Assembly: GCA_964347325.1 (NCBI GenBank)
Contig: CAYFYA010000005.1
Coordinates: 52,984-76,983 of the forward strand
Direction: 5' to 3'
DNA from: an uncultured Methanomassiliicoccales archaeon
Lineage (GTDB): Archaea; Thermoplasmatota; Thermoplasmata; RBG-16-68-12; JAJISG01
Length of the DNA: 24,000 bases
In this document: positions 3,949-24,000 of the stretch, piece after piece
Layout: every line of letters begins with the position of its first letter
How positions within the stretch are numbered: position 1 is the stretch's first letter
The notes under the pieces: model-generated
What the model was told of the DNA's origin: nothing
What the model saw: the letters and a program-made list of their open reading frames with translations, nothing else
Databases searched by the model: none
Position numbers and translations under genes: made by a program

Positions 3949-5532
3949 ATGAGGAAGGATATGAGGTGGTGGGGGTGGGGTTCCCCCGATGTACGATATC
4001 CTTCAGAACGGCTGGAGCTTGCCCTTCGCTTCCTTGAGACTCGAGGAATCAAGCTCAGGGAGGCCCAAGAAATCCCGAGTGTGCCATCCCTTCCGCCGAG
4101 TCGGCTCAGGGCGGAAGACCTGGAGGCCCTCGAGGGTGCCTTGGAGGTATCCACAGACGACGAAGTCCGCATCAGTCGCTCCCTAGGGAAGGGCTACCTC
4201 GACCTCCTCAAGGTGAGGCTGGGGCGGGTAGAAGAGTTTACCGATGCCGTGGCCTTTCCAAGGGATTCTGAACACGTGCGCCTCCTATTGGAAACGGCTG
4301 CATCGCGCGGAATAGCCGTTGTCCCTTATGGCGGTGGGACCTCCGTCCTCGGGGGACTCAGACCGTTGAGGGGGCGAAACAGAGCTGTAGTCACCGTCGA
4401 CCTTCGTCATCTGAACAAGGTCCTCGAGGTCGACGAGGTCTCCCTTCTGGCCAGGGTGGAGGCGGGTGTCAGTGGGCCAGAACTGGAGGAGGTCCTCGGT
4501 CGGCACAATATGACTCTTGGCCACTTCCCCCAGTCCTTCCACTTCTCCACTCTCGGTGGTTGGATCGCCACCCGAGCCTCTGGTCATCTCTCGGGAGCGT
4601 ACGGTCGCATCGAGAACATGGTCCAGTCGGTAAGTCTTGTGACACCTCAGGGGACCCTCGTCACAAAGGATGTCCCTGCAAGATCCGCAGGCCCCGAGCT
4701 GCGGGAGCTGGTCCTGGGGTCAGAGGGTGCCTTCGGCATCATCACGGAAGCGGTGGTAAGGGTGCGGAGGAGTCCTGAGGCCAGAGCCAGAAGGGTTCTC
4801 CTCATCCCAGGCTTCACCACGGCCTTGGATGCGGCTCGGGGAATGATTCAGTCGGGAATCGTGCCTTCTCTCTTGCGCATCTCAAACGAGGATGAGAGCT
4901 CGATGATCGCTCACATGGCTGGGCTAGAGGCGGAGGAAGTCCCCTCCATAGTCCTCTTGGGCTTCGACGGCACCAAGGATGACACGGTGGCCTCAATGGA
5001 GACCGCAGTTGAATCCCTTGTAGACGCAGGAGCCCTGGACCTGGGAGAGGAGCCCGCCCTCGTCTGGGAGGAGGAGTACTACACGACGCCATACCTTCGC
5101 GATGACTTCCTTGCCCGTGGCCTCCTGGTTGACACGCTTGAGACGGCCGCATCATGGAGAGGACTGCAAAAGCTTTACGTCGCAGTTCGCCACGCATTGC
5201 TGGACGCGTACTCTCAAGGGGGTGTCCAGGGGTTGGTCCTCTGTCATCTCTCTCACACCTATCGAGATGGCGGCTCACTCTACTACACCCTCATCGCGCC
5301 CCGGGAGCAGGGGAAGGAGGTTGAGCAGTGGTGGGAGATCAAGCGGGCCGCCACAGAGGCGATAATGAGAGCGGGCGGGACCATCAGCCACCATCATGGC
5401 GTAGGTACCGATCACCTCTCCTGGATCTTGGAGGAGCACGGAGAGACTGCCCTCATGGCGCTCAAATCGCTCAAGATAGCCGTAGACCCAAAGGGTATCA
5501 TGAATCCGGGGAAGGTGGTGCGGGAGGAGTGA
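3949..5532 (+). CDS. FAD-linked oxidase of the alkylglycerone-phosphate (alkyl-DHAP) synthase-like family
   Basis: N-terminal MRWWGWG (AGPS RWNGWG-like). FAD_binding_4 region VVPYGGGTSVLGG...VDL..LNKVLEVD. C-terminal SHHHGVGTDH...DPKGIMNPGK, typical of AGPS/GlcD-type vanillyl-alcohol-oxidase-fold enzymes. The stop overlaps the next ATG (TGATG). Confidence 0.8.
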   Translation: MRKDMRWWGWGSPDVRYPSERLELALRFLETRGIKLREAQEIPSVPSLPPSRLRAEDLEALEGALEVSTDDEVRISRSLGKGYLDLLKVRLGRVEEFTDAVAFPRDSEHVRLLLETAASRGIAVVPYGGGTSVLGGLRPLRGRNRAVVTVDLRHLNKVLEVDEVSLLARVEAGVSGPELEEVLGRHNMTLGHFPQSFHFSTLGGWIATRASGHLSGAYGRIENMVQSVSLVTPQGTLVTKDVPARSAGPELRELVLGSEGAFGIITEAVVRVRRSPEARARRVLLIPGFTTALDAARGMIQSGIVPSLLRISNEDESSMIAHMAGLEAEEVPSIVLLGFDGTKDDTVASMETAVESLVDAGALDLGEEPALVWEEEYYTTPYLRDDFLARGLLVDTLETAASWRGLQKLYVAVRHALLDAYSQGGVQGLVLCHLSHTYRDGGSLYYTLIAPREQGKEVEQWWEIKRAATEAIMRAGGTISHHHGVGTDHLSWILEEHGETALMALKSLKIAVDPKGIMNPGKVVREE

Positions 5533-7175
5533 TGGAATCCGGCTTCAACTGGAGACGACGAGAGGAGGGATTGGAGGCCCTTGATAAGGAGTTCGACGTC
5601 ATAGTCGTCGGCGGCGGAATCAACGGCTGCGCGGTGGCGAACGAGACAGCGAGGAGAGGTCAACGCGTTCTCCTCTTGGAGAAGGGGGACATCGGCAGCG
5701 GGACCAGCGGTAGGTCATCACGCCTGATCCACGGAGGGTTGAGGTATCTCAAACATGGACAGGTTAAGGTCGTTTGGGACGGGTGCAGAGAGCGCCACTG
5801 GTTGAGGACCCACTACCCCTACCTCGTTCGCCCGGTTCGGTTCATCATACCCTTCTACGAAGGCGAGGGAGAGGGGCCTGTCCTGACTTTTCTGGGACTC
5901 TGGATCTACGATCTCCTCTCGGCCTTCAGGAATGTCAGCAGGCACCGTCGTCTGAGGCGAGGGGAGGTCCTCGCCGAGGAACCAAGACTGCGATCAGGGG
6001 GGCTCCAGGGTGGTGCCGTCTACTACGACTGCATGACCGATGACTTCAGGCTCGTTCTCCTCAACGCCGCCATGGCGAACGCTGCGGGGGCGTACGTACT
6101 CTCGCACTGCCGCGTGGAAGCCCCCACACTCGAAAACGATCGCGTGGTTGGGGTACAGTTCACCGACCTGTTAAGCGGCGAACCCCATTCGGCCCGAGGT
6201 CGAATCGTGATCAACACCACGGGCCCATGGAGCGACCTGATTAGAGTCGGGATTGGGGCCGCAGAGCCGATGTTGAGGCCGACCAAGGGCGTTCACCTAA
6301 TCGTCCCACGGGAGAAGGTAGGTAACCGCAACGCCGTGGTCATCAGATCTCCGACGGATGGACGAGTCCTCTTCACCCTCCCATGGGGGAAGCACACCAT
6401 CATCGGGACCACCGACACCGACTTCCCAGGTGACCCGGACGAGGTTCAGGTTGAGGGGTGGGATGTGGACTACCTGCTCGAGGCAGTGAATGGCGCCTTT
6501 CCTCGGACCGAACTTCGGCGCAGTGACGTAGTGAGCACCTACGCAGCCCTCCGCCCTCTGGTCGGGCGACAAGGTGTGTCCGAAGGAGAGGTAAGCAGAG
6601 ACTTCAAGATCGTGGAAGATGCGCCGGGGCTTGTGTCCATTCTGGGCGGGAAGCTCACCACCTACAGGCCCTCAACGCTTAGGGTTGCAGACATCGTTTC
6701 GCGGATAGTATCCAGGCGTCCGGACAAGATGAGAAGAGGCACTGGCACCCGAAGGGGCATCCCGGAGGAAGACATTCTCGGCATCAAGAAAGAGGCCGCA
6801 CAGAGAGCCGCCCAACTCGGATTGGATCAAGAGGTCGCCGGCTCTCTGGTCGCTTCCTACGGCCCACACTCCGGGTCGATCCTGGAGCTCGCCTCTCAGG
6901 GGGACCTCCGCAGGAGGATTGTTCCGGACCTCCCTCGGATCATGGCTGAGATCGTCTATTCCGTCGAAAGTGAAATGGCTCTGAGATTGGAGGACGTTCT
7001 TGTCCGTCGAACCAGGTTGTTCTACGAAGATACAGGGCACGGGTTGGGGGTAGCCAAGGAGGTCGCGGAACTGATGGCAGCCAGGACGGGGTGGAGTGAC
7101 GAGCGAGTTCAACGAGAGGTGGACGATTACCGTGGCCTCGTGGAATCGATGAGGGCCTCTCTGGAGGGGGGCTAG
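5532..7175 (+). CDS. glpD: FAD-dependent glycerol-3-phosphate dehydrogenase/oxidase (GlpD/GlpO family)
   Basis: From the internal ATG: MESGFNW...FDVIVVGGGINGCAVANETARRGQRVLLLEKGDIGSGTSGRSSRLIHGGLRYL (dinucleotide fold plus the GlpD signature), followed by a long C-terminal GlpD-type helical domain. The 68 upstream codons in the track overlap the preceding gene and are not credible. Confidence 0.85.
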   Translation: MESGFNWRRREEGLEALDKEFDVIVVGGGINGCAVANETARRGQRVLLLEKGDIGSGTSGRSSRLIHGGLRYLKHGQVKVVWDGCRERHWLRTHYPYLVRPVRFIIPFYEGEGEGPVLTFLGLWIYDLLSAFRNVSRHRRLRRGEVLAEEPRLRSGGLQGGAVYYDCMTDDFRLVLLNAAMANAAGAYVLSHCRVEAPTLENDRVVGVQFTDLLSGEPHSARGRIVINTTGPWSDLIRVGIGAAEPMLRPTKGVHLIVPREKVGNRNAVVIRSPTDGRVLFTLPWGKHTIIGTTDTDFPGDPDEVQVEGWDVDYLLEAVNGAFPRTELRRSDVVSTYAALRPLVGRQGVSEGEVSRDFKIVEDAPGLVSILGGKLTTYRPSTLRVADIVSRIVSRRPDKMRRGTGTRRGIPEEDILGIKKEAAQRAAQLGLDQEVAGSLVASYGPHSGSILELASQGDLRRRIVPDLPRIMAEIVYSVESEMALRLEDVLVRRTRLFYEDTGHGLGVAKEVAELMAARTGWSDERVQREVDDYRGLVESMRASLEGG

Positions 7176-9847: not shown

Positions 9848-10402
9848 TTGGATATAGAGGACATTCTCCTTGAGATGAAGGACACGAGCGAGCTGATGGT
9901 GGACCTGGCCTACTCTGCCCTCCTCTACGACAACGAGGAGATCGCCCGCCAGGTCCTGGAGCTGGAGAGCCAAGTAGACGAATGGGACGAACAGGTTCAG
10001 AAGCTGGCGGTGGAGAGGGCGATCGAGGATAGAGACGTGGAGAAGGCCCTGGTCTTCATACGACTCGCGGACTCCATCGAGACAGTAGCCGACGGTGCCA
10101 TCGAGATCGCCGACGTCGTTCTGAGGGATATCGAGCCCCATCCTGTGGTGGCAGCCGCATTGAAGGAGTCAGATACTGCAATCACAACCGTGAAGGTGCC
10201 TGCAGCATCTCCGGCGGCGGGCAGAACGCTGGGGGAGATGAAGCTGGCTTCAGAGACCGGCATGTGGGTCATCGCCATTCGCAGGGGAGAGAGATGGATC
10301 TACGGCCCCGACGAGAACACTCGGGTGGAGCCGGGAGATCTGCTCATCGCCCGCGGACCCGTGGAAGGCGAGGAGGAGCTTAGGCACTACATCGGTGGAT
10401 AG
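9848..10402 (+). CDS. Cytosolic PhoU-like helical domain + TrkA-C (RCK_C) domain protein, copy 2
   Basis: Paralog of the previous gene: ILLEMKDTSELMVDLAYSAL...ETVADGAIEIADV...LGEMKLASETGMWVIAIRRGERWIYGPDENTRVEPGDLLIARG. TTG start. The stop codon overlaps the 3' end of the convergent tRNA. Confidence 0.65.
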   Translation: MDIEDILLEMKDTSELMVDLAYSALLYDNEEIARQVLELESQVDEWDEQVQKLAVERAIEDRDVEKALVFIRLADSIETVADGAIEIADVVLRDIEPHPVVAAALKESDTAITTVKVPAASPAAGRTLGEMKLASETGMWVIAIRRGERWIYGPDENTRVEPGDLLIARGPVEGEEELRHYIGG

Positions 10403-10472
10403 CCCCGGGCAGATTCGAACTGCCGTCACGAGGTCCAGAACCTCGCATGATTGACCGCTACACTACGGGGCT
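10400..10472 (-). tRNA. tRNA-Gln(CUG), copy 1 (73 nt, no encoded CCA)
   Basis: Hand-folded minus-strand sequence AGCCCCGTAGTGTAGCGGTCAATCATGCGAGGTTCTGGACCTCGTGACGGCAGTTCGAATCTGCCCGGGGCTA. Acceptor AGCCCCG/CGGGGCT (A1:U72), discriminator A. Anticodon stem CGAGG/CCTCG with loop TT-CTG-GA. T arm GGCAG-TTCGAAT-CTGCC. Confidence 0.85.
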
Positions 10473-10495
10473 GCTTTGAGGCCTCATCTAGGCCT

Positions 10496-12184
10496 CTAGG
10501 AGCGGTTCACGCCAGAATCGCGTTTCTGCATCTTCGCCCATGGGTCGCGGAGCGTCGCTGTCCTGTTCAGCACCAACCGATCATCTTCAGTATCGGGGTC
10601 CACGCAGAAATAGCCATTCCGTTCGAACTGGAATCGTGAGAAGGGCCCCAGCCCGCGAACCGCGGGCTCGACCTTGCAGCCCATCAAGACCTTGAGAGAC
10701 TCTGGGTTCACGAAATCCTTGAAGTCCCTGCCCCTCTCACCGAGTGGGTCCGATACGTTGAAGAGCTTGTCGTAGAGGCGCACCTGGGCATCGACAGCGT
10801 GTTCAGCCGAGACCCAATGCAGCGTGGATCGGACCTTCCTGCCGTCGGGGGCGTCTCCCCCTCGCGTGGCTGGGTCCACCGTGCAGCGAAGTTCCACTAC
10901 CTCCCCACCTTCCTTGATCGCCTCCTGGCACGTGACCAGGTAGGCGTACCTCAGCCTGACCTCCCGACCCGGTGCCAATCGGTAGTACTTCTCCGGAGGG
11001 TCTTCCATGAAGTCTTCCGCCTCGATGTAGAGGACGCGGGAGAAGGGCACCTTGCGGGTGCCAGCACTCGGATCCTCCGGATTATTCACGGCATCGAACC
11101 ACTCCACCTTGGCCTCCGGGTGGTTCTCGATAACCAGTCTCAGAGGGCGCAGGACACCCATGAATCGCGGCGTGGTCCTGTTGAGATCTTCCCGTACACA
11201 ATGCTCCAAGAATTCGAAGTCGACCGTGCTGTGGACCTTGGCAACGCCGATTCGACTGCAGAAACTCCTGATGGAAGCGGGGGAGTAGCCGCGGCGGCGC
11301 ATCCCACTGATAGTGGGCAAACGAGGGTCGTCCCATCCGTCGACGTAGCCACCCTCGACGAGTTCTAGGAGCTTCCGCTTGCTCATCACCGTGTAAGTCA
11401 GGTTGAGGCGTGCAAACTCGATCTGCCGCGGATGGTAGACACCAAGCTCCCCCAGGTACCAATCGTAGAGGGGACGATGGTCCTCGAACTCCAGGGTGCA
11501 TAGGGAGTGGGTGATGCCCTCGATGGAGTCTTCCAGGCCGTGGGCCCAATCGTAGGTTGGGTAGATGCACCACTTGTCCCCGGTGTTATGGTGGGTGGCG
11601 TGAAGGATCCTGTACATCACGGGATCTCGCATGTTCATATTCGGATGGGCCATGTCGATCCTAGCGCGCAAGACCTTCTCCCCCTCGGAGAACTCGCCAG
11701 CTCGCATCCGCTCCAGCAGTTCTAGGTTCTCACCGACAGACCGCTTCCTGTGGGGGCTCTCGATTCCAGGGGTTGTCAGCGTCCCTCGCTGCTCGCTGAT
11801 TTGCTCCGCCTGCAGGTCGTCCACAAAAGCCTTGCCCTTCTTGACCAGCTGGACCGCATAGTTATACATCTGGTCGAAGTAGTCGGAGGCGAAGTAGAGG
11901 CGGTCATCCCAGTCGAAGCCGAGCCACTTCACGTCCTCGATGATCGACTGGACGTACGTCTTCTCCTCTCTGAGGGGGTTCGTGTCGTCGAAGCGGAGGT
12001 TGCAGAGGCCTCCATACTCCTCAGCGACGCCGAAGTTGAGGCAGATCGACTTGGCGTGGCCTATGTGGAGGTAGCCGTTGGGCTCCGGTGGGAAGCGAGT
12101 GTGCACTCGACCCTCGTATCTGCCCGTCTGGTTGTCCTTATCGATGATCTTGCGGATGAAGTCCGTTGGAGGCTCCGATTCCAT
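10496..12184 (-). CDS. glnS: Glutaminyl-tRNA synthetase, bacterial type (562 aa)
   Basis: It can be aligned by eye along its full length with E. coli GlnS as remembered: [134 protein letters not shown]. The start is placed at MESEPP (12184) because the 28 extra track codons run into the upstream tRNA gene. Confidence 0.9.
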
Positions 12185-12211
12185 GGCAGCCCACTCTGAG
12201 GATGCTGGAGA

Positions 12212-12282
12212 TAGCCCCGGCCGGATTTGAACCGGCGCCTGGGGATCCAGAGTCCCATATGCTGCCACTACACCACGGGGCT
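12212..12282 (-). tRNA. tRNA-Gln(CUG), copy 2 (71 nt, no encoded CCA)
   Basis: Hand-folded minus-strand sequence AGCCCCGTGGTGTAGTGGCAGCATATGGGACTCTGGATCCCCAGGCGCCGGTTCAAATCCGGCCGGGGCTA. Same acceptor stem and discriminator as copy 1. Anticodon stem (T)GGGA/TCCC(C) with loop CT-CTG-GA. T arm GCCGG-TTCAAAT-CCGGC. Confidence 0.8.
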
Positions 12283-12308: not shown

Positions 12309-12316
12309 CTCTAAAT
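12309..12316 (-). promoter_or_regulatory. TATA box (TATTTAGA, preceded by purine-rich GGAAAGG) for the tRNA-Gln / glnS / tRNA-Gln unit
   Basis: Minus strand reads GAGGAAAGGTATTTAGAGACAACTTGGACTGAGACTTAAGGAGC followed by the tRNA 5' end. The box ends 27 nt upstream of tRNA position 1, the canonical archaeal spacing. Confidence 0.55.
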
Positions 12317-12423
12317 ACCTTTCCTCAATTGCGCGGCACGGACCGCTTCAGGCAGGTGGGCTGACATCCACCGCAGCTCCGTAGGGGGGCCACATTATCA
12401 GGGAGGTCTTGCAGGCGGGAACT

Positions 12424-14010
12424 TCAGTCTCGGCTGGCCTCATCCAATCGAGAGAGGACGAAGTCCCTGTCCAGGACGACGAGCAACGGTGCGGCCCTGG
12501 GACCTGATGGCTTACCTAGAAAAACCGTGTAGAGAGCGGCGAAGAACCTCTTCGTCGAAACTCGCAGGGTTCCGCTGCCCGTGAGCTCCACCATGGCATC
12601 CTTCACGCTCCCCTCCAACCAGGGGATGTCCTCCAGCCGACCCCGCAGGGCGGCCAACGCTTCTCTTTCCTTGCTGGAGAGGCCCTCCCGCACCTCAGCG
12701 GGCAAGGTCTCTTGTATCTGAAAGCGTGCATCTTCCGGACCATAGTTGGTCACCCACAGTAGCGACTGTTCAAGCCGCTTCCCAAGCAGCTCCCTCTCCG
12801 CCTGCGTGAGAGACCTATCCAGGAGTCCAGTGTCCTCCAGCCGCCTTGTGGACCAGTCGAGACGGCCGTCAGGAGGTGCCGCTTGAGCCATAATAGATGC
12901 ATGGCGATAGGCAACCTGGAAGGGCATCTCAGAAGGGGGCGCACCGAGTAGAGATAGCGAGTATGACCTAGCCTCAGGCGACTCGCCACTGAAGAACGCG
13001 GCCTCACCTTGGTCATAGGCCTGATGATACAAGTCCATCTTGGCAAGGTCCAGGACGACCCTGCGGCGGATCGGGATGTTGGCATACAGGAAGCGGAGGA
13101 TCTCGGGCTCCGCCATCTCCAGCCACTCCTCGGGCCCGAACCCCACGAAGTCTGAGCTGTCCATATCTCCTCGGTCCTGACCGTTCTCCGATAGGCCCAC
13201 CCACTCGTATGGAATGCCCAAAGGCGGCTTAATCCCAATGACGTCTTCAGCGATGGCAGCACAGCTCTCCCGGGAGCCACCTGGCGCCGCGTGGTCCTTC
13301 CCGAAGGGCTCCACATCCACCTTAAGCAGGGCCCAGAGGGCAGGCCACTCTACCCGCCAGTTCAGTTTGCCCAGACTCAGGTGTGACGTCCCGCTGTGGC
13401 CGCACCCGCACTCATAGTCGACCTCGGCCGCACGAACCTCGAGGGCCCTGGCCTGGCCAACTCGATGACACTCATCGCACAGAGGCTCGAAGGGGACCCA
13501 GCCCTCTGGATGGGGGTTACGGGGCCTGTAATCGTTGAGTATCCGCCTTATCTCCTCCGTCAGGGGCAGTATTCGTCGGACGAGATCAATCATCTCCTCT
13601 CGCTCGTAGATCTCCGTCGTCGTCGTAACCTCGACGCCGGGAGCAAAGCGCTGCAGCGAGGAGCCGAAGCCCTCCCAGAAGTGGTCCACCCAGTTCCCAT
13701 GGCACCCGTGGGGGTCAGGAACGTCGATCAGCCGCCAGCCCGTGTAGGCCTTTCCTTCATCTCCAGCGAACTGTGCGACCTGTTTGGGACTTCCCTTCCA
13801 CGGGTCCTGCGTGTAAAGGACGAGGTGCTGGACTACCTCCTTCCCCTCATCCCTGAGGTGCGAGGCGATGAAGTGGTTGAGGACGATCTCTCCACGCAGC
13901 CTTCCGACGTGCTGGAGGCCCGACACGGAGAGGCCCGCGTTGCAGACTACCTTCGACTTGGACGCTAGGAAAGCGTCTACGGAGTGGGCAAGCTCATCGA
14001 ACCAGTGCAT
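12424..14010 (-). CDS. lysK: Class I lysyl-tRNA synthetase homolog (528 aa) with a non-canonical KMSKS loop
   Basis: MHWFDELA..., SGLQHVGRLRG (HVGN-type HIGH motif), VPDPHGCH, a CxxC...CxC zinc-like insertion, LNWRVEWPALW, EPFGKDH, and C-terminal FFAALYTVFLGKPSGPRAAPLL all follow the class I LysRS layout. The KMSSSKG position reads DMDSSDF. Confidence 0.8.
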   Translation of the reverse strand: MHWFDELAHSVDAFLASKSKVVCNAGLSVSGLQHVGRLRGEIVLNHFIASHLRDEGKEVVQHLVLYTQDPWKGSPKQVAQFAGDEGKAYTGWRLIDVPDPHGCHGNWVDHFWEGFGSSLQRFAPGVEVTTTTEIYEREEMIDLVRRILPLTEEIRRILNDYRPRNPHPEGWVPFEPLCDECHRVGQARALEVRAAEVDYECGCGHSGTSHLSLGKLNWRVEWPALWALLKVDVEPFGKDHAAPGGSRESCAAIAEDVIGIKPPLGIPYEWVGLSENGQDRGDMDSSDFVGFGPEEWLEMAEPEILRFLYANIPIRRRVVLDLAKMDLYHQAYDQGEAAFFSGESPEARSYSLSLLGAPPSEMPFQVAYRHASIMAQAAPPDGRLDWSTRRLEDTGLLDRSLTQAERELLGKRLEQSLLWVTNYGPEDARFQIQETLPAEVREGLSSKEREALAALRGRLEDIPWLEGSVKDAMVELTGSGTLRVSTKRFFAALYTVFLGKPSGPRAAPLLVVLDRDFVLSRLDEASRD

Positions 14011-17706: not shown

Positions 17707-20700
17707 CTATGGCCAGTCAAAGCTGAAGAGTGCCCAGGAGTAAGACAAGTAAGGCGTTACGACTTCCGTGAAATTCACATCCACAGGCGTATCCTCAATA
17801 TCGGTTATTCCAAAGGCAAGGGGGCCATAGCCGAGTGAGAATTGCCTACGATCCCTGTCGCCGTAGGCGAGACCGAAATCAATAGGTCCATCGAGGGATA
17901 GTCCAGTGGTGGGCGTAGCAAGTACAAGGTATGCGTCTATGCCCGCATCCGTTATGTAGAACGATAGCGCAGGCAACAAGGTGACCTCCGCGCCTGGCCC
18001 TTCTCCGAAGGGGAGAGTGATGGCCACCTCCACCGTCACGAAAACTCCCAGGACGCTGCCGGAGGGAACATTCACCCCGCTAACGAGGAGATCATAGTTG
18101 CTGGGGTCAAAGATTTCTGGCCAGGCAAGGAAGCTGGACAAGTCCGGCAGAGTAAAGGCGAGTTGAACGCCCGTCAAAGTCTCTATTTCATCTATGAACG
18201 AGTTGAAGAGAGCCTGCAAGGTCGCGACGTTCATGTCATCGACTAGGACCGCAACGTCGGCGGCCAAATCCAGAAGCCACTCAACGGTCCGATCGCTCAT
18301 GTCCTTCACACTCTGCGGGATCGGGAGGTGCTGAATCCCTGGGCGCAGTATGTCGTATGCAAGGCTCACCACGTCTTTGGCCGCTACAAGTCCGTTTGCG
18401 ACGAAATCGGCTGCAACCTTGAAACCGGCCTCCAGAAGCTCGACGGGACCAGGGATCTGCAGTTCGTTGACGGATTCGTTCAGAAGGCCGGATACATCTC
18501 TGAGTGCACCGTTCACATCGAGATACGGGGCGAGGAAGCGAGACTGCACGCCAGCGAAAGTCTGTATGCCAGAAAGGATGGCCTCGATGGCTGGCCGTAG
18601 GATCTGCTCAATTACCCAAAGGGCGCCGTCTAGGAGTAGGTCGAGAGCCTCCCTTCCGAGGTCCAAAAGGATTTCCAAGGCCTGAGTCGCGAAATCGTAT
18701 ACCGCGTCGAGAGCATCGGCAACGCCTGCAATGTTTGTCCTAGACTCCGCACTGTTGTCATTGCTGTCCCACGCCCTCACCTTCACATCGAAGCCGTGCC
18801 AGATGGCGCTCCCGATATTGACCTCATGTGAGAACCAGCCCACTTTGATGAAGGCCCTATGAACCTTCACGTTTCCGTTGATGTCTATTCTTACGGTATC
18901 AAGCGTGGTTTCGCCATCCTCGACTTTGAACGTTCCTCGTACCTTCACCCAGTCCAGGACCTCCCTATATCCCGTGACCACCGTCTCGTAGACGGTCCTC
19001 ACGACCCTGTCCCACCGCAGGGTGAGGACATTCCATACGCTCTCGGTTACAGTCCTTTTCACCCTCTCGTAGATCGGCTCGAGGGAAATGTGCACGTCCA
19101 CCGATATGGTGAAATCTGTTATGCTGGGCGAATTGCGCTCTACGATGAGAGGAGCGGGATCCACATGGTCCAATAGCCCGTCCCCGTCCGTGTCGCGGTG
19201 ACGGGGATTCGTACCAATGACAAATTCGTCGTAGTCCGTCAGCAGGTCGCCATCCGAATTGATCCTGGTCGGATCTGAGGTAACCGGTAGCTCCTGGATG
19301 TCGTCCACCCGGTGTATGATGAAGACAATCCAACCATTGTATTCGGTGCCGTCGATTAGGCCATCGCCGTCGGTGTCCTTGTCGAGGGGATCGGTGGAGG
19401 CAAAGAACCACTCATCGTCTGCCAGGTGGTCACCGTCCGTGTCCTGCAGTGTGGGGTTCGTACCATCGTTGTATTCCCACCAGTTCTGGCGGCTATCACC
19501 GTCCTTATCCTTCCACTGATCAACCGAGTCGTAAGCGATGAGGTTGAACTCCAGTTCCCAAGCCGTCGGCATCCCGTCTCCATCGTCATCACTATCCTGT
19601 ATGTTCCAGATGCCATTGCCATCGAGGTCGTGCGTGGCATAGAACTCACCCAGCTCATACTCTTCCAGATTCGTTAGGCTATCGCTGTCGAAGTCAGCGG
19701 CGGCGTCGGTTCCGTTCAGCGGGTCCAATCCGGTGAACTGCCCCCAGCGGGCTTCAAACTCGTCAGGAATCCCATCGCCGTCGGTGTCAGGGTCATTTGG
19801 ATTCGTGAAGTATGTCTGCTCCTCGGCGTCATCCAGCCCATCATCGTCACTGTCCGGGTCCAAGGGATTGGTTATGTAGCCATCAGCTCCACTGTTAACC
19901 TCCTCGAAGTCATCTAGACTGTCCGAGTCGCTATTGGCATCCAGGGGATCGGTTCCATGGATTATCACCTCATCACCGTCCGAGAGGAGGTCGTCATCGG
20001 TGTCACTGTCGGTGAGGTTCGTCTCCCCAGATGCAAAGCCGTCCCACTGCCCGTTGTGGTTGGCATCCTCCGTCCCATCCAAGAGGCCGTCTCCGTCCAT
20101 GTCCGGATTGGTATCGTCGGGGTCAACGCCCGTTATGAGCCCATCATCATCCTGGTCGTTGTCGAGAGGGTCCGTCTCAATCACAGGATTGAGAGGATCA
20201 AAGCGAGGATCGCCTGAAAGGTCGGGATCCAAAACGCCATTGCGATTGAAGTCCTCACCTTCGGCCGGATCGTAGAGGTTGTCGCTATCGAGGTCCACCC
20301 ATCCATCGTACAGAAGGGCATCGCTATCAGAATTCTGATCTCGCGCGTTGATCCACCCGTCTCCATCAGTGTCCCCGTCCCAGGCGTTTTCGGTACCATC
20401 TAGGATTCCGTCGCCGTCAGAATCGGGGTCCAGCGGGTCCGTCTCCCTGAAGGTGGCGGGGGTATCGTAGGCTCCGTTGCGATTCCTGTCCTCAATGCCA
20501 TCCAAGAGCCCATCATTGTCGGAGTCCGGATCGGCGGGGTCCGTTTCCCCCGGATCCGTAAGCCCATCTTTGTCGGTGTCTTCGATTCCGTCGAGGAGCA
20601 AGTCGTCGTCAGAGTCGGCATCTAGAGGGCTCGTCCTCAACCCTACCTCTATCCCATCCACCAACAGGTCGTCGTCCGTATCACTGTCCGTTGGGTTCGT

Positions 20701-23700
20701 TTCGCCAGGATCCCACTTCCCGTTGAGGTTGGCATCTTCTTGCCCGTCTAGGAGGAAGTCAACATCCGTGTCGCCCGACCTGGGATCTGTGAACAGGTAT
20801 TCCAGGTCGTCGGTCAGGAGATCCCCATCTGGGTTGGGGAGAGTAGGATCGGCAGTGACATGAACGGTGGCGCCGTTCACCGTGATATCCCATCCTGCAA
20901 CTTCTACGCCATCGATCAGGCCATCACCATCGGTGTCCTCGTTGGCGGGGTCCGTTATGTACCCGTCGACTCCCGGAATAACCTCCTCATAGTCCGTTAG
21001 GCCGTCGGCGTCCGTGTCCACGATCAGGGGACTTGGCTCGTCGACGTCTGTGAAGCCGTCGCTATCCACATCCTCCTCCCCATCGGCGAGGCCATCGTCG
21101 TCAGAGTCCTTATCGAGCAGGTTCACGATGGAGTCGGTATCAGTATCGACGAAAGGTCGCTGTTCCTTGGCGTCTGGGACCCCATCCCCGTCGGAATCCA
21201 AGTCGACCATGTTTTCCAGTCCATCATTATCCATGTCCGTGTTAGGGTGAACCGTCTGTTCCACGAAATCGGTGATGCCATCGCTGTCGGAATCGAGATC
21301 GAGGGCGTTCAGATACCCATCCTGGTCGGTATCCTTATCGTATAGAGCCTCCGTTCCATCAAGGAGCCCATCATAGTCGCTGTCCGGGATGAAGGGGCTG
21401 ATCCTCCAGTATATCTCCTTGCCCTGAAATCCTACTGCAGGAAGGTCCGACGAGACGATTGATACGCCGGAGGAGACGAACACGTAGAGAGTCCCCTCCA
21501 GAGTCCCTGTCCCGTCCCTATCGAGGAAGTCGGAGAAGGGTTCCCAAATATAGACCCGATCCAAGTCTCGATCGTAGAATATCCTCGTGCCGTCCACCAG
21601 TCTGAACACTCCCTCGACGCCGGGGCTCCTTGCGTTCGCTGGAGATGTGCTCTCCACATCCCTCTCAACGGAATCGAAGAGATAGGCTGCCCCGGGAAGG
21701 CCATCAGTCACGTTCCGGTCGAAATATATCCAGTCATCTGCAGCCGCGTAGTTCTCAATGCTCTCCGCGCCATCTACCACACTCGTCCTAAAGAGAACGA
21801 AGGCCTCCTGGCCATCCTGCAATCCGTCCTCATCATGATCAGTGCCAAGCTCGAAGCCGCCCGCTATCGTGCCGTCTCCGTCCCAGTCGTACGGCTTCGG
21901 ATTCGTCCCAAGGTTGAACTCCATGACGTTCGTGAAAGGCGTCCAGTACCGGGTGAAGTCCCCATCAGGATTCCCGTCATCCCCATCATCCCCAATCGCA
22001 GAGAGCGGGTCGACGTGGACACGGACTTCCCAGCCGTCCGGCAGACTATCTCCGTCGGTGCTCCACTTCAGCGGGTCCGTCTCTGACAGATCCTTCCGAC
22101 CATTCTGGTTGACATCTTCTCCCAATTCATCAGTCGAGAAGACGTCATTTCCGTCCGCGTCAAACCAACCGTCGTAGAGTCCGTCGTCGTCCGTGTCGAA
22201 GTCAAGTGGGTCCGTCACGCTGGCTGGGTCGGCGTCAGAGAGGATTCCGAGCTCGAGGCCGTCGGAAAGCATATCGCCATCCGAGTCCCAGCTCAGTGGG
22301 TTCGTTCCAAGCCTCGACCACTCGGAGAAATCTGTCAGCCCATCGTGATCGCTGTCCACGTTCAAGGGGAAAGTCCCTATGAACACCTCCGTACCATCTT
22401 GGAGGCCGTCTCCGTCCACGTCCGGGTCTAGGGGATCGAGCTGGAGCTTCTCCGCGAGGATGTAGCTCAGGAATGCAGTGAAGTCAAAGTCCTCTGGAAT
22501 GTCCCCGACGATGGAGGTTTCATTCAGGTCAATGATTACCGTGTATATTCCGGCTTCAAGGTCGAAACTCCTTAACCAGAAGGAGTAGATGTCGCTGTAC
22601 CCAGCAGAGAGATAACGATTTGCGTCGGTGATTATGGTGTTGTCATACGTGGGAGGAATTGCCACGCCGTTCTTCTCGACCGTAACCTCAATGGCTTCCA
22701 TGAGCTTCGTCAAGTTGACGGTTGTCTCCGAGGGATACGGATTCAGCCACCGGATGCTGTTGTCGACGAGCCTGTGCTGCTGGGTAACGTTCATTACCTC
22801 GGTGATGTCGAACGACATGTATACGATCTGGCCGCCATCCATCACGTCCCCGTTGTCATCGAAGGTGTTGACACCATAATCGCCAAAGAAGTCCCACTGG
22901 AACACGGGCTGAGCATCCGCGAGGTTGAAGAACGCATCAGCATCTGACCCCGTATACCTCATTAAGAGGACACTCTCGTTCAACGTAAAACCAGAAGTCA
23001 CCGGGTGATCCACTATGGAAATCAGACGGCTGGTTCCTCCATCCTCCAGGCCCACCGCGTGAAGCACGATACCACTGAAGGCGGGATCCGCCCAAGCGAA
23101 GGTGGAGAAGTCCCCTCCCTCGATAAGCAACCTTCCGCCAGTGAGGACGAAGTCAATGAGGAGCGGACGTTGGATAGGATCGGGCAGGGGGTTGGGATCG
23201 TCTCCCGAGCTCCACACCACGAAGTCATAATCCAGCAGGTCAACGTCCCACAGCCGTGTGGAGTCGGCCATATCCACCCTGAGGCCGAGCAGATTCAACC
23301 TAGTCGCGAAGAGATCGGCGCTGAACTCAAGTCCATCTTCAACCTTATCATCATTGACGACCAGCACTCGCGGATTGTACAAGATCCCATTCGCTGGAAT
23401 CTTCAGCCTGTAGTGCCCCTCCTGCTCGATCTGCAGGATTCGCTTGACAGGAGGCATCCACATCCGGAGCTGCTCCCTAACTCTGACGCTATCGTAGGCG
23501 AAGAAGTCAAACAGCTCCTCGGAATCTAGCAGGCCGTCCTCGTCTGTGTCAGGACTATACGCATCGGTTTCGAATCCCACTTCACCTGAATCTAGCAGGA
23601 AGTCCGAATCCGCATCTGCAATCCTGGGTGGCGTTCCGAAGTTGAACTCCCCCACATTCATGAGCAAATCTTCGTCGGGATCATTCACGCCATCCTGATC

Positions 23701-24000
23701 GTCCAACGGGTCGAACTGATACCAAACCTCCCAGCCATCGCTCATCAGGTCTCCGTCAGTATCCTTATCTGTGGGATCCGTGTCATTCAGGTACTCCTCC
23801 AAATTCGTGAATTGCTCGAAGGCGTCGACGATGCCGTCTCTGTCGAAATCATAACCATCGTCGTCGGAATCGATGGCCGAGTCAGACGGATCACGAGGAT
23901 TCAGCCCATATCGCTCCTCCCACGAGTTGGGAATCCCATCCCCGTCCCAGTCCGGGGGCAGATAATAGATTCCAGCTAGAATGGCCGCCACTACAAGGGC
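17707..24000 (-). CDS. Giant (at least 2097 aa) acidic surface/secreted protein with ~50 thrombospondin type 3-like Ca-binding repeats; the reading frame is open to the right window edge
   Basis: A single 6.3-kb ORF. The frame continues through 23992-24000 (ALV-VAAILAGIYYL, the tail of a hydrophobic anchor or signal). It carries dozens of DxDxDGxxDxxE motifs (for example DTDGDGLIDGVE, DPDSDNDGLLDGIE, DKDSDDDGLADGEE) and recurrent DGxPxxWExxYGLNP-type motifs. Confidence 0.85.
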   Translation of the reverse strand, partial: ALVVAAILAGIYYLPPDWDGDGIPNSWEERYGLNPRDPSDSAIDSDDDGYDFDRDGIVDAFEQFTNLEEYLNDTDPTDKDTDGDLMSDGWEVWYQFDPLDDQDGVNDPDEDLLMNVGEFNFGTPPRIADADSDFLLDSGEVGFETDAYSPDTDEDGLLDSEELFDFFAYDSVRVREQLRMWMPPVKRILQIEQEGHYRLKIPANGILYNPRVLVVNDDKVEDGLEFSADLFATRLNLLGLRVDMADSTRLWDVDLLDYDFVVWSSGDDPNPLPDPIQRPLLIDFVLTGGRLLIEGGDFSTFAWADPAFSGIVLHAVGLEDGGTSRLISIVDHPVTSGFTLNESVLLMRYTGSDADAFFNLADAQPVFQWDFFGDYGVNTFDDNGDVMDGGQIVYMSFDITEVMNVTQQHRLVDNSIRWLNPYPSETTVNLTKLMEAIEVTVEKNGVAIPPTYDNTIITDANRYLSAGYSDIYSFWLRSFDLEAGIYTVIIDLNETSIVGDIPEDFDFTAFLSYILAEKLQLDPLDPDVDGDGLQDGTEVFIGTFPLNVDSDHDGLTDFSEWSRLGTNPLSWDSDGDMLSDGLELGILSDADPASVTDPLDFDTDDDGLYDGWFDADGNDVFSTDELGEDVNQNGRKDLSETDPLKWSTDGDSLPDGWEVRVHVDPLSAIGDDGDDGNPDGDFTRYWTPFTNVMEFNLGTNPKPYDWDGDGTIAGGFELGTDHDEDGLQDGQEAFVLFRTSVVDGAESIENYAAADDWIYFDRNVTDGLPGAAYLFDSVERDVESTSPANARSPGVEGVFRLVDGTRIFYDRDLDRVYIWEPFSDFLDRDGTGTLEGTLYVFVSSGVSIVSSDLPAVGFQGKEIYWRISPFIPDSDYDGLLDGTEALYDKDTDQDGYLNALDLDSDSDGITDFVEQTVHPNTDMDNDGLENMVDLDSDGDGVPDAKEQRPFVDTDTDSIVNLLDKDSDDDGLADGEEDVDSDGFTDVDEPSPLIVDTDADGLTDYEEVIPGVDGYITDPANEDTDGDGLIDGVEVAGWDITVNGATVHVTADPTLPNPDGDLLTDDLEYLFTDPRSGDTDVDFLLDGQEDANLNGKWDPGETNPTDSDTDDDLLVDGIEVGLRTSPLDADSDDDLLLDGIEDTDKDGLTDPGETDPADPDSDNDGLLDGIEDRNRNGAYDTPATFRETDPLDPDSDGDGILDGTENAWDGDTDGDGWINARDQNSDSDALLYDGWVDLDSDNLYDPAEGEDFNRNGVLDPDLSGDPRFDPLNPVIETDPLDNDQDDDGLITGVDPDDTNPDMDGDGLLDGTEDANHNGQWDGFASGETNLTDSDTDDDLLSDGDEVIIHGTDPLDANSDSDSLDDFEEVNSGADGYITNPLDPDSDDDGLDDAEEQTYFTNPNDPDTDGDGIPDEFEARWGQFTGLDPLNGTDAAADFDSDSLTNLEEYELGEFYATHDLDGNGIWNIQDSDDDGDGMPTAWELEFNLIAYDSVDQWKDKDGDSRQNWWEYNDGTNPTLQDTDGDHLADDEWFFASTDPLDKDTDGDGLIDGTEYNGWIVFIIHRVDDIQELPVTSDPTRINSDGDLLTDYDEFVIGTNPRHRDTDGDGLLDHVDPAPLIVERNSPSITDFTISVDVHISLEPIYERVKRTVTESVWNVLTLRWDRVVRTVYETVVTGYREVLDWVKVRGTFKVEDGETTLDTVRIDINGNVKVHRAFIKVGWFSHEVNIGSAIWHGFDVKVRAWDSNDNSAESRTNIAGVADALDAVYDFATQALEILLDLGREALDLLLDGALWVIEQILRPAIEAILSGIQTFAGVQSRFLAPYLDVNGALRDVSGLLNESVNELQIPGPVELLEAGFKVAADFVANGLVAAKDVVSLAYDILRPGIQHLPIPQSVKDMSDRTVEWLLDLAADVAVLVDDMNVATLQALFNSFIDEIETLTGVQLAFTLPDLSSFLAWPEIFDPSNYDLLVSGVNVPSGSVLGVFVTVEVAITLPFGEGPGAEVTLLPALSFYITDAGIDAYLVLATPTTGLSLDGPIDFGLAYGDRDRRQFSLGYGPLAFGITDIEDTPVDVNFTEVVTPYLSYSWALFSFDWP
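19160..22446 (-). repeat. Main coding array of TSP3-like aspartate-rich repeats inside the giant ORF, interrupted by a ~145-aa non-repeat insert at ~21385-21815
   Basis: It runs from LDPLDPDVDGDGLQDG (about 22446) to RDTDGDGLLDHVDP (about 19160). The repeats are degenerate at the DNA level (GAC/GAT-rich periodicity) and are not exact tandem copies. Confidence 0.7.
23500..24000 (-). repeat. N-terminal block of ~7 TSP3-like repeats of the giant ORF
   Basis: DWDGDGIPNSWEERYGLNPRDPSD, DSDDDGYDFDRDG, DKDTDGDLMSDGWEVWY, DADSDFLLD, SPDTDEDGLLDSEE. Confidence 0.65.

Follow-up and report, generated by a model that had tools for sequence, protein, structure and literature searches.

Two archaeal-type tRNA-Gln genes flanking a bacterial-type glutaminyl-tRNA synthetase gene in an uncultured Thermoplasmata lineage

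In a window of 24,000 nucleotides (nt) from an uncultured Methanomassiliicoccales archaeon (assembly GCA_964347325.1, contig CAYFYA010000005.1, positions 52,984 to 76,983 of the forward strand), the gene glnS, which encodes a bacterial-type glutaminyl-tRNA synthetase (GlnRS), is located between two genes for glutamine tRNA (tRNA-Gln), both with the anticodon CUG. Here, we have compared this arrangement with the glnS loci of related archaea and of bacteria, and we have found that the layout tRNA-Gln/glnS/tRNA-Gln is a conserved trait of the lineage. The explanation that we favour, with a probability of roughly 0.6, is that of a conserved chromosomal cluster, likely expressed as one transcript, in which two old paralogues of archaeal type now both decode CAG. 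The findings are presented in four parts: the cluster itself and its occurrence in the relatives, the two tRNA types with their anticodons and their probable expression, the neighbourhood of the cluster together with the alternative explanations, and the comparison with known systems.

The cluster in the window and in its relatives

The elements of the cluster are listed below in the direction of transcription, with window coordinates; "upstream" and "downstream" refer to the position of a tRNA gene relative to glnS.

12312..12322, minus strand: element resembling a B recognition element (BRE) and TATA box, AAAGGTATTTA, which precedes the upstream tRNA by 30-40 nt; read from the sequence, with a putative promoter role
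12212..12282, minus strand: upstream tRNA-Gln(CUG), 71 nt, referred to as "type A" (ARAGORN; Rfam RF00005, 62.5 bits)
12185..12211, minus strand: 27-nt spacer from the 3' end of the upstream tRNA to the glnS ATG, with only a weak Shine-Dalgarno-like GAGTGG
10496..12184, minus strand: glnS, bacterial-type glutaminyl-tRNA synthetase, 562 amino acids (aa) from the ATG at 12184 (TIGR00440, Pfam and structure matches)
10473..10495, minus strand: 23-nt spacer from the glnS stop codon to the downstream tRNA, with two AGGCCT palindromes and a potential hairpin of 6-7 bp
10400..10472, minus strand: downstream tRNA-Gln(CUG), 73 nt, referred to as "type B" (ARAGORN; Rfam RF00005, 59.8 bits)

According to ARAGORN, the window contains two tRNA genes and no others; both are read as tRNA-Gln(CTG) on the minus strand, and each of them matches the covariance model RF00005 over its full length, with about twice the gathering score of 29 bits; the isotype Gln was assigned by YUG at positions 34-36. 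The original prediction had described two tRNA-Gln(CUG) genes that flank glnS on one strand, with spacers of 27 nt and 23 nt, and both programs and the coordinates agree with it, as do the sequence details that it gave for the tRNAs (stems, loops, positions 9, 26 and 32, A1:U72 and A73), all of which are correct.

The two tRNAs agree at 52 of 73 aligned positions (71%). Their acceptor stems are identical (AGCCCCG/CGGGGCT), with A1:U72 followed at the 3' end by A73 and no encoded CCA, and both have a variable loop of 4 nt. They differ in the D loop, which is AGTGGCA (7 nt) in type A and AGCGGTCAA (9 nt, with 20a/20b) in type B; in the D stem, GTGT/GCAT against GTGT/TCAT, the latter with a U13-U22 mismatch; in the anticodon stem, TGGGA/TCCCC with a U27-C43 mismatch against CGAGG/CCTCG; in the variable loop, AGGC against TGAC; in the T stem, GCCGG against GGCAG; and at the single positions 9 (G against A), 26 (A against G) and 32 (C against U). 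Both tRNAs bear A1:U72 and A73, the hallmark of archaeal tRNA-Gln (Marck and Grosjean, cited in PMC9499178), as well as the 4-nt variable loop, a conserved feature of archaeal tRNA-Gln (PMC2330236). The pair C12:G23, which is also given as an archaeal tRNA-Gln feature (PMC9499178), is found in neither of them: both have G12:C23, as do 28 of the 29 related genes, so that C12:G23 is not general in this lineage. An assembly artefact is ruled out, since the junction of lysK (the gene upstream of the cluster), tRNA and glnS recurs in two independent assemblies (L169 and L170) at 99.97-100% identity.

The protein that is encoded between the two tRNAs scores 696.8 bits against the TIGR00440 glnS model (cut-off 425.8) and 340.7 bits against the archaeal gltX model, under the cut-off of 401.75. 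It contains all three Pfam domains of GlnRS and glutamyl-tRNA synthetase (GluRS), i.e. PF00749, PF03950 and PF20974, together with the signature motifs HIGH and (K)MSK (LHIGHAKS and VMSKR), and it matches the structure 5bnz, deposited as glutamine--tRNA ligase, with E=4e-212 and the E. coli GlnRS structures with 5e-206. The residues Arg30, Tyr211, Cys229, Gln255, Arg341, Arg402, Arg410, Gln517 and Arg520, which we take, after structure work on the E. coli enzyme, to serve in glutamine binding and anticodon reading, are kept in 15 of 15 Thermoplasmata GlnRS. The enzyme is a genuine and intact GlnRS, and it is predicted to aminoacylate tRNA-Gln.

Among the alignment columns that are specific to the clade and might explain the acceptance of A1:U72, A73 and C3:G70, we have found only F401Y, G454S and an insertion of one residue; in the comparison of tRNA-contact sites, Leu136 and Asp235 are not distinctive in this lineage. 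At residue 401, which has the same number in E. coli and in the window, Tyr replaces the bacterial consensus Phe; the replacement occurs in 14 of 15 Thermoplasmata GlnRS, in all three GlnRS from Heimdallarchaeota and in 8% of bacterial GlnRS. Residue 401 adjoins Arg402, which reads G36, and F401Y may reflect adaptation of both archaeal groups to a tRNA-Gln that has G37 and not A37, or it may point to a common origin.

The closest glnS genes in reference genomes, at 70-82% identity, belong to metagenome-assembled genomes (MAGs) labelled Thermoplasmata, Thermoplasmatota or "Methanobacteriota", and the next matches are bacteria (57-67%) and three Heimdallarchaeota (about 60%). In a large protein collection, each of the 120 clusters among the matches listed is at least 75% identical to the window GlnRS, and the source names among these matches are Thermoplasmata, Thermoplasmatales, Methanomassiliicoccales and Euryarchaeota RBG_16_68_12, with one cluster named Petrotogales. 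A neighbour-joining (NJ) tree places the GlnRS of Thermoplasmata in a single clade (99% bootstrap), which is nested among bacterial sequences, and those of Heimdallarchaeota in a separate clade (100% bootstrap); the two archaeal clades group together with a bootstrap of 34%, a value at which we have not adopted a single origin of archaeal GlnRS.

In order to place the window among its relatives, tRNA genes were sought by ARAGORN and by an insertion-tolerant pattern search at 15 Thermoplasmata glnS loci. A tRNA-Gln gene is located at most 400 nt from glnS at 14 of these 15 loci, against 5 of 150 bacterial-type loci, a contrast that bears out the earlier judgement of the packaging as unusual. 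The arrangements, with the GC content of each locus, are as follows.

Window's clade (GlnRS 80-86% identical), the window, L081, L172, L161 and L001: type A CUG, glnS, type B CUG; GC 0.53-0.66
Window's clade, L162: type B downstream only; GC 0.53
Sister clade, L002, L163 and L167: type A CUG, glnS, type A UUG; GC 0.50-0.51
Low-GC clade, L003, L107, L165 and L166: CUG, glnS, UUG, followed by tRNA-Glu(UUC); GC 0.36-0.40
L164: downstream CUG only; GC 0.42
L082: upstream CUG only; GC 0.56
L026: upstream CUG on the opposite strand, and downstream tRNA-Glu(CUC); GC 0.54

Wherever an upstream tRNA-Gln is present, its anticodon is CUG; in the low-GC clade, L107 has two UUG genes and L165 has a degenerate additional copy. 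In most Thermoplasmata loci, the tRNA and the synthetase gene are adjacent on one strand, with conserved linkage and spacers of 23-102 nt, and tRNA-Gln stays with glnS in varied neighbourhoods: lysK...purP or PhoU/TrkA in the window's clade and the sister clade, CinA/RTC in L165 and L166, with different genes again at L162 and L164. Cognate linkage is not restricted to archaea: at L029, L114 and L117, bacterial-type loci that group with one another in the GlnRS tree, a tRNA-Gln(CUG) is located directly downstream of glnS on the same strand; the one linked tRNA of these that was read, from L029 (labelled Bacteroidales), is of bacterial type (U1:A72).

tRNA types, anticodons and expression of the cluster

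Orthologues of type A, at 84-99% identity, are located upstream of glnS in L081, L172, L161, L001, L002, L163 and L167, and orthologues of type B, at 89-97% identity, are located downstream of glnS in L081, L172, L161, L001 and L162. When 30 glnS-linked archaeal tRNA-Gln are aligned, pairing holds in 97.4% of cells, and at 12 of the 21 pairs both sides have changed in a compensatory manner; slid controls reach 29-47% pairing. On each measure, all 500 shuffles stayed below the observed value, a control that overstates significance because the aligned tRNAs are related. All 29 distinct tRNA-Gln of archaea that are linked to glnS have A1:U72, and G2:C71 also never varies. Compensatory changes inside the lineage are seen for both window types; in type B within the window's clade, for example, the pair 27:43 is C:G, G:C or A:U and the pair 31:39 changes from G:C to A:U.

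With the anticodon excluded, the best agreement of type A (0.80-0.83 identity) is with the CUG genes upstream of glnS in the low-GC clade, and type A is probably their positional orthologue, the D loop of which has become shorter. That clade's downstream UUG genes (A'), which agree with type A at 0.69-0.76, have been dropped as members of the type A lineage. Type B is closest to the downstream gene of L164 (0.85), and then to the upstream CUG genes and the downstream UUG gene of L107 (0.75-0.81), while its D arm, GTAGTGTAGCGGTCAATCAT, closely resembles the D arm of the linked tRNA-Glu genes, GTAGTGTAGTCCGGCCAATCAT. Judged from the gene sequences, the divergence of the two window tRNAs is one of old paralogy, with no recent duplication.

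In the genes of the window, CAG occurs 120 times and CAA 31 times. The loci with two CUG anticodons (the window, L081, L172, L161 and L001) and those with CUG only (L162, L082 and L026) have a locus GC of 0.53-0.66, and in the glnS genes counted at these loci (5 of 8, L161, L162 and L172 not being among them) CAG exceeds CAA about 2- to 11-fold. The loci with CUG upstream and UUG downstream (L002, L163, L167, L003, L107, L165 and L166) have a locus GC of 0.36-0.51, and the glnS genes counted there (3 of 7: L002, L003 and L107) are all CAA-rich. The linked tRNA-Glu genes parallel this trend, their anticodon being CUC at L026 and UUC at the loci of low GC. These counts support the view that the anticodons of the cassette track codon bias, an association with CAA/CAG use that is seen on few independent events. 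Since CAA codons remain in the window, a tRNA-Gln gene with the anticodon UUG should exist elsewhere in the genome.

With respect to expression, A-rich or TATA-like boxes (AAAGGTATTTA, AAAGCCTAAAT, AAAGGATAAATA, AAAGTTATATA) are located 5' of the upstream tRNA also in L081, L172, L161, L002, L163, L167, L003, L107, L165, L166 and L082. The spacer between the upstream tRNA and glnS, at 27 nt, is too short for an archaeal promoter, and glnS would therefore be co-transcribed with the upstream tRNA; in L081 and L161, spacers of 27-29 nt at the same place carry AGGTGA 6-8 nt before the ATG. The 23-nt spacer of the window contains no AT-rich box, so that no separate promoter for the downstream tRNA is obvious there. 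Where the spacers of relatives are longer (71-90 nt), additional TATA-like boxes are seen, as in the glnS-to-tRNA spacers of L001 and L162 (88-90 nt), and the degree of coupling probably differs among the relatives. Given the spacers of 27 and 23 nt and the single promoter-like box 5' of the first tRNA, the three window genes most likely form one precursor.

The explanation that we favour would accommodate these findings as follows. An uncultured Thermoplasmata lineage would have acquired a bacterial-type GlnRS long ago, and both flanking tRNAs, i.e. the short-D-loop type A upstream and the long-D-loop type B downstream, would be functional tRNA-Gln of archaeal type; since the tRNAs are archaeal and the enzyme is bacterial in type, they did not arrive jointly from bacteria. 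A single precursor, cut by RNase P and tRNase Z, would yield two tRNAs and a glnS mRNA with a short leader, and would couple the expression of GlnRS to the expression of its substrate tRNAs. The downstream gene is UUG in the CAA-rich relatives of lower GC and CUG in the CAG-rich clade of the window, with about 60% GC, where both copies would serve CAG as redundant isodecoders and both would be charged by this GlnRS.

Several points weigh against this explanation. The GlnRS of E. coli and of yeast are unable to charge archaeal tRNA-Gln (PMC2330236), and charging by the window enzyme is our assumption. Redundancy of the two copies is likewise a default assumption, as a divergence of about 29% that is kept in at least five genomes under structural selection fits specialisation too. 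Co-transcription, although most likely, has been read from the geometry of the genes. The association of anticodon with GC is confounded with phylogeny over few independent events, and L164, with a GC of 0.42 and CUG in its sole tRNA, is an exception to it. The downstream CUG gene of the window may derive from a UUG gene through a switch of U34 to C, or it may be a relocated or copied CUG gene; with genes of only 71-73 nt and evident gene conversion, the sequences do not decide between the two origins. Finally, the downstream type B gene of L161 (4200-4272), the closest relative sampled (GlnRS 86% identical, GC 0.66), has C33 in place of the near-universal U33 (loop CCCTGGA).

The cassette also records the turnover of tRNA genes, with switches of the anticodon, near-identical flanks, a newly acquired insertion in the D loop and copies in decay, in parallel with codon bias. 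In L167, the flanking tRNAs (2858-2928 and 4737-4807) are direct repeats of 71 nt that are identical save for C34/T34; those of L002 differ at two positions, and those of L163 are also near-identical. Differences of this kind, confined to nucleotide 34 in L167 and similar in L002 and L163, indicate that anticodon switching occurs in the cassette, and the near-identity of the flanks suggests gene conversion or a recent switch; flanking repeats such as those of L167 may also loop out glnS by recombination. In L001 (5768-5868) and L162 (4775-4875), type B carries an insertion of 29 nt in the D loop, after GGTCAAT, that ARAGORN missed; the insertion is at the same site in both loci, with a conserved 3' part, CCTCAGCCGGCAAAT, and, while no clear bulge-helix-bulge was found in it by minimum free energy (MFE) folding, it is presumably a non-canonical archaeal intron.

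The extra tRNA-Gln(UUG) of L107 (4715-4787; anticodon arm CCGGCC-TTTGGAG-CCGGC) and the tRNA-Glu(UUC) of the same locus (4964-5040; CCGGCC-TTTCGAG-CCGGC) have anticodon arms that differ essentially at position 36, and their acceptor stems are unlike; the likeness of the arms hints at remoulding between Glu and Gln tRNAs or at conversion of the arm. In L165, the stretch between glnS and the UUG tRNA (about 4740-4815) holds the degenerate remains of a tRNA-Gln(UUG)-like gene, which ARAGORN does not call and in which G2 and A71 are mismatched; it is the counterpart of the extra UUG gene of L107. The spacer of 251 nt before the downstream tRNA of L164 (4690-4940) holds the 5' end of the tRNA twice more (AGCCCCGTAGT...), in each case with an A/T-rich segment and an end of the form ...GGGGAT after it; these copies may be tRNA-derived repeats or the remnants of past insertions.

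Neighbourhood of the cluster and alternative explanations

An alternative that was put forward in the original prediction is that the two copies are divided between two pathways: a non-discriminating GluRS (ND-GluRS) and GatDE would be kept, with one CUG type charged by GlnRS and the other served via Glu-tRNA-Gln and GatDE. Its premise is borne out by the literature, in which GatDE recognises A1:U72 of tRNA-Gln and rejects tRNA-Glu through extra bases of the D loop (PMC2330236). Two distinct CUG isodecoders are indeed under selection in at least five genomes of the window's clade; their D loops, the region that is read by GatDE (PMC2330236), differ most (7 nt against 9 nt with 20a/20b), and the tRNA-Glu-like D arm of type B is what might be expected of a substrate of ND-GluRS. 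These sequence arguments conflict, however, in that the short D loop favours GatDE and the likeness to tRNA-Glu favours GluRS. Furthermore, the acceptor stem, A1:U72, A73, G10 and the 4-nt variable loop are common to both window tRNAs, so that the known recognition features of GatDE do not separate them. In L167, L002 and L163 the flanking tRNAs are of a single type and differ only in the anticodon, and in L003, L107, L165 and L166 there is one type per anticodon; a design of two types per anticodon is therefore not a property of the cassette. The genes gatD and gatE and a gene for ND-GluRS are absent from the window and the collected loci, no genome-wide search aimed at them having been made. 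With the single-type relatives and the shared determinants counting against it, the idea of one copy per pathway is left without support, and we consider it unlikely.

The second alternative concerns the movement of the cassette, for which the genes around it are relevant. The immediate neighbours are the following.

12424..14010, minus strand: lysK, archaeal class I lysyl-tRNA synthetase (LysRS), the upstream neighbour (TIGR00467 lysS_arch, 270.5 bits; PF01921)
9848..10402, plus strand: PhoU/TrkA-C gene, convergent with the cluster, the stop codon of which overlaps the final 3 nt of the downstream tRNA

The convergent PhoU/TrkA-C arrangement is repeated in L081 and L172, and the order DUF885/PRT/lysK/tRNA/glnS is kept in L001, L002, L081, L161, L163, L167 and L172. 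Archaeal neighbours in the window are the class I LysRS (lysS_arch), PurP (DUF1246/DUF1297), a D-aminoacyl-tRNA deacylase of the DTD2 type and Tpt1. The neighbourhood is rich in genes related to tRNA: besides the class I LysRS, it encodes the DTD2-type deacylase (PF04414, 1076-1966) and the RNA 2'-phosphotransferase Tpt1/KptA (PF01885, 2059-2706), which is a tRNA-splicing enzyme. In L163 and L167, too, this deacylase and Tpt1 are encoded close to the cassette. At the far side of the window, an open reading frame (ORF) of 2094 aa (17707-23991, minus strand) runs to the window edge with a GC of 0.55-0.58, slightly below the rest; it has no Pfam match above threshold, and only a sub-threshold TSP3 repeat.

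Across glnS, the GC is flat at 0.59-0.61 and equal to that of the flanks, so that glnS is an old resident gene. We have found no integrase, transposase, terminal or att-like repeat and no anomaly of GC or skew in the window, the neighbours being housekeeping genes, and the exact runs that are shared by the ends of the two window tRNAs are of 8-10 nt. A mobile element integrated at a tRNA gene has accordingly been rejected, as the window has no mobility gene, att-like repeat or compositional anomaly.

LysRS homologues were also examined for loci without the cassette; among the 120 matches listed, all are apparently of the same broad group. In L171, the LysRS of which is 68% identical to that of the window, against 48-64% in the cassette-bearing relatives compared, lysK is followed by a full methyltransferase and a giant Kelch-repeat protein, with no tRNA or glnS there. 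L172 carries a 75-aa fragment of the L171-type methyltransferase (1408-1635) between lysK and the cassette, which is a rearrangement breakpoint at the cassette edge. We have rejected L171 as a pre-insertion locus: the site is rearranged, and it does not provide a clean empty site.

It has been proposed, in the original prediction as an alternative to the division between pathways, that the cassette moved as a self-contained unit of synthetase and tRNA; in its wider form, the tRNA/glnS/tRNA cassette would spread between archaea as a module of the genetic code, e.g. between Thermoplasmata and Heimdallarchaeia, in the manner of pylTS. The part of the proposal that stands is that the tRNAs stay with glnS across neighbourhoods, the unit being intact in at least four different ones. 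The absence of an adjoining cassette at the lysK of L171, despite the closest LysRS, the truncated methyltransferase at the junction in L172 and the repeated tRNA 5' fragments beside the cassette of L164 would also agree with movement, as would, for an exchange with Heimdallarchaeia, the tRNA-Gln(UUG) immediately downstream of glnS in two of the three Heimdallarchaeota loci, the grouping of the two GlnRS clades in the NJ tree and the rare F401Y that is common to both. The combination of archaeal-type tRNAs with a bacterial-type enzyme, however, means that there was no co-import from bacteria, and the window is free of the marks of mobility sought above. The monophyly of archaeal GlnRS stands at a bootstrap of 34%, the tRNAs linked to glnS in Heimdallarchaeota (AGUCCC... 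acceptor) are just 62-75% identical to those of Thermoplasmata, and the GlnRS tree is congruent with the groups of flanking synteny, which fits vertical descent with rearrangements. A spreading module is thus, in our view, improbable to a similar extent as the division between pathways.

Parts of both alternatives can be combined: GlnRS would have become fixed beside the host tRNA-Gln, with type A, its D loop shortened, as its co-evolved substrate and type B as that of ND-GluRS and GatDE, giving dual routes for CAG, and the unit would possibly have passed between Thermoplasmata and Heimdallarchaeia. The cluster would then be a trace of how one archaeal lineage passed the barrier that is thought to exclude GlnRS. 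This combination we regard as slightly more doubtful than either of the alternatives from which it draws.

That one copy is a non-functional or decaying duplicate, so that only one tRNA matters, is very improbable: mismatches (U27-C43 upstream, U13-U22 downstream), the C33 of L161, the D-loop insertion in L001 and L162, the clearly degenerate third copy of L165 and the missing flank in L162, L164 and L082 would be in its favour, but both window copies score about twice the Rfam threshold, the insertion occurs at one position in two genomes in an otherwise intact tRNA, as for a spliced archaeal intron, and the conservation of the types at 84-99%, with compensatory stem changes, where GlnRS is 80-86% identical makes a pseudogene unlikely.

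Comparison with known systems

Reviews up to 2022 describe all known archaea as being without GlnRS, and explain this by an incompatibility of archaeal tRNA-Gln (A1:U72, A73) with GlnRS (PMC2330236, PMC9499178); elsewhere, "almost all" archaea are said to be without the enzyme (PMC8762117), and a transfer of GlnRS to Archaea is asserted (PMC8879553). A preprint (10.1101/2024.07.04.601786) places GlnRS beside cox genes in Heimdallarchaeia. In the literature that we have searched, with incomplete coverage, we have found no prior description of a Thermoplasmata GlnRS or of the tRNA-flanked arrangement.

The tRNAs of the window are ordinary in themselves, and their value is in their context: one Thermoplasmata lineage widely carries a GlnRS of bacterial type, the gene of which is physically tied there to tRNAs with supposedly "incompatible" features. 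The lineage thus offers a natural pair of enzyme and tRNA with which to study by what means the barrier was crossed, and whether one archaeon can have the direct and the indirect route side by side, and the pair could serve as a new scaffold for orthogonal pairs.

The window enzyme resembles the bacterial GlnRS (E. coli glnS; structures 1gsg, 1o0b and 1qtq) over its full length, with about 60% identity, the same three domains and the same catalytic and anticodon-reading residues, while the tRNAs differ from that of E. coli: the latter has U1:A72, G73, G3:C70 and A37, and the window tRNAs have A1:U72, A73, C3:G70 and G37. With the route of ND-GluRS and GatDE, the window has in common tRNAs that bear the hallmarks recognised by GatDE, i.e. 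A1:U72, no extra D-loop bases of the tRNA-Glu kind and a 4-nt variable loop (PMC2330236, PMC9499178); unlike that route, it has a GlnRS gene that is physically linked to tRNA-Gln. The adjacency of glnS and tRNA-Gln in the bacterial-type loci L029, L114 and L117 differs from that of the window in that there is a single tRNA, with no flanking on both sides, and in that it is rare (5 of 150).

The GlnRS of Heimdallarchaeia is, as in the window, a bacterial-type enzyme in archaeal genomes, with a tRNA-Gln directly downstream in two of three loci; it differs in its lineage and neighbourhood (cox), in its length of about 650 aa and in having a single flanking tRNA, with the anticodon UUG. One Heimdallarchaeota MAG (L023) has, 2.5 kb downstream of glnS (6538-6608), a tRNA-Gln-like gene with the acceptor AGCCCTG and A1:U72, but with an abnormal anticodon arm (GTAGG-TTTAGG-CTTAC), the loop of which counts 6 nt, and 8 nt should the last pair open; it is labelled "tRNA-??? 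(ta)" by ARAGORN, and MFE folding does not give a cloverleaf. Either a pseudogene or a suppressor-like tRNA of the UUA/UAG type could be present here.

A parallel in organisation is with pylT-pylS of Methanosarcinales and Methanomassiliicoccales, the latter being included in Thermoplasmatota. In both cases, a synthetase gene adjoins the gene of its cognate tRNA in a compact archaeal unit, which adds a charging route that the host would otherwise lack. In the case of pylTS, however, the amino acid is a new one and the tRNA a suppressor dedicated to it, and transfer of the unit as a cassette is known; the cluster of the window serves a canonical amino acid with ordinary tRNA-Gln of archaeal type, two of which flank the synthetase gene, and its mobility is putative.

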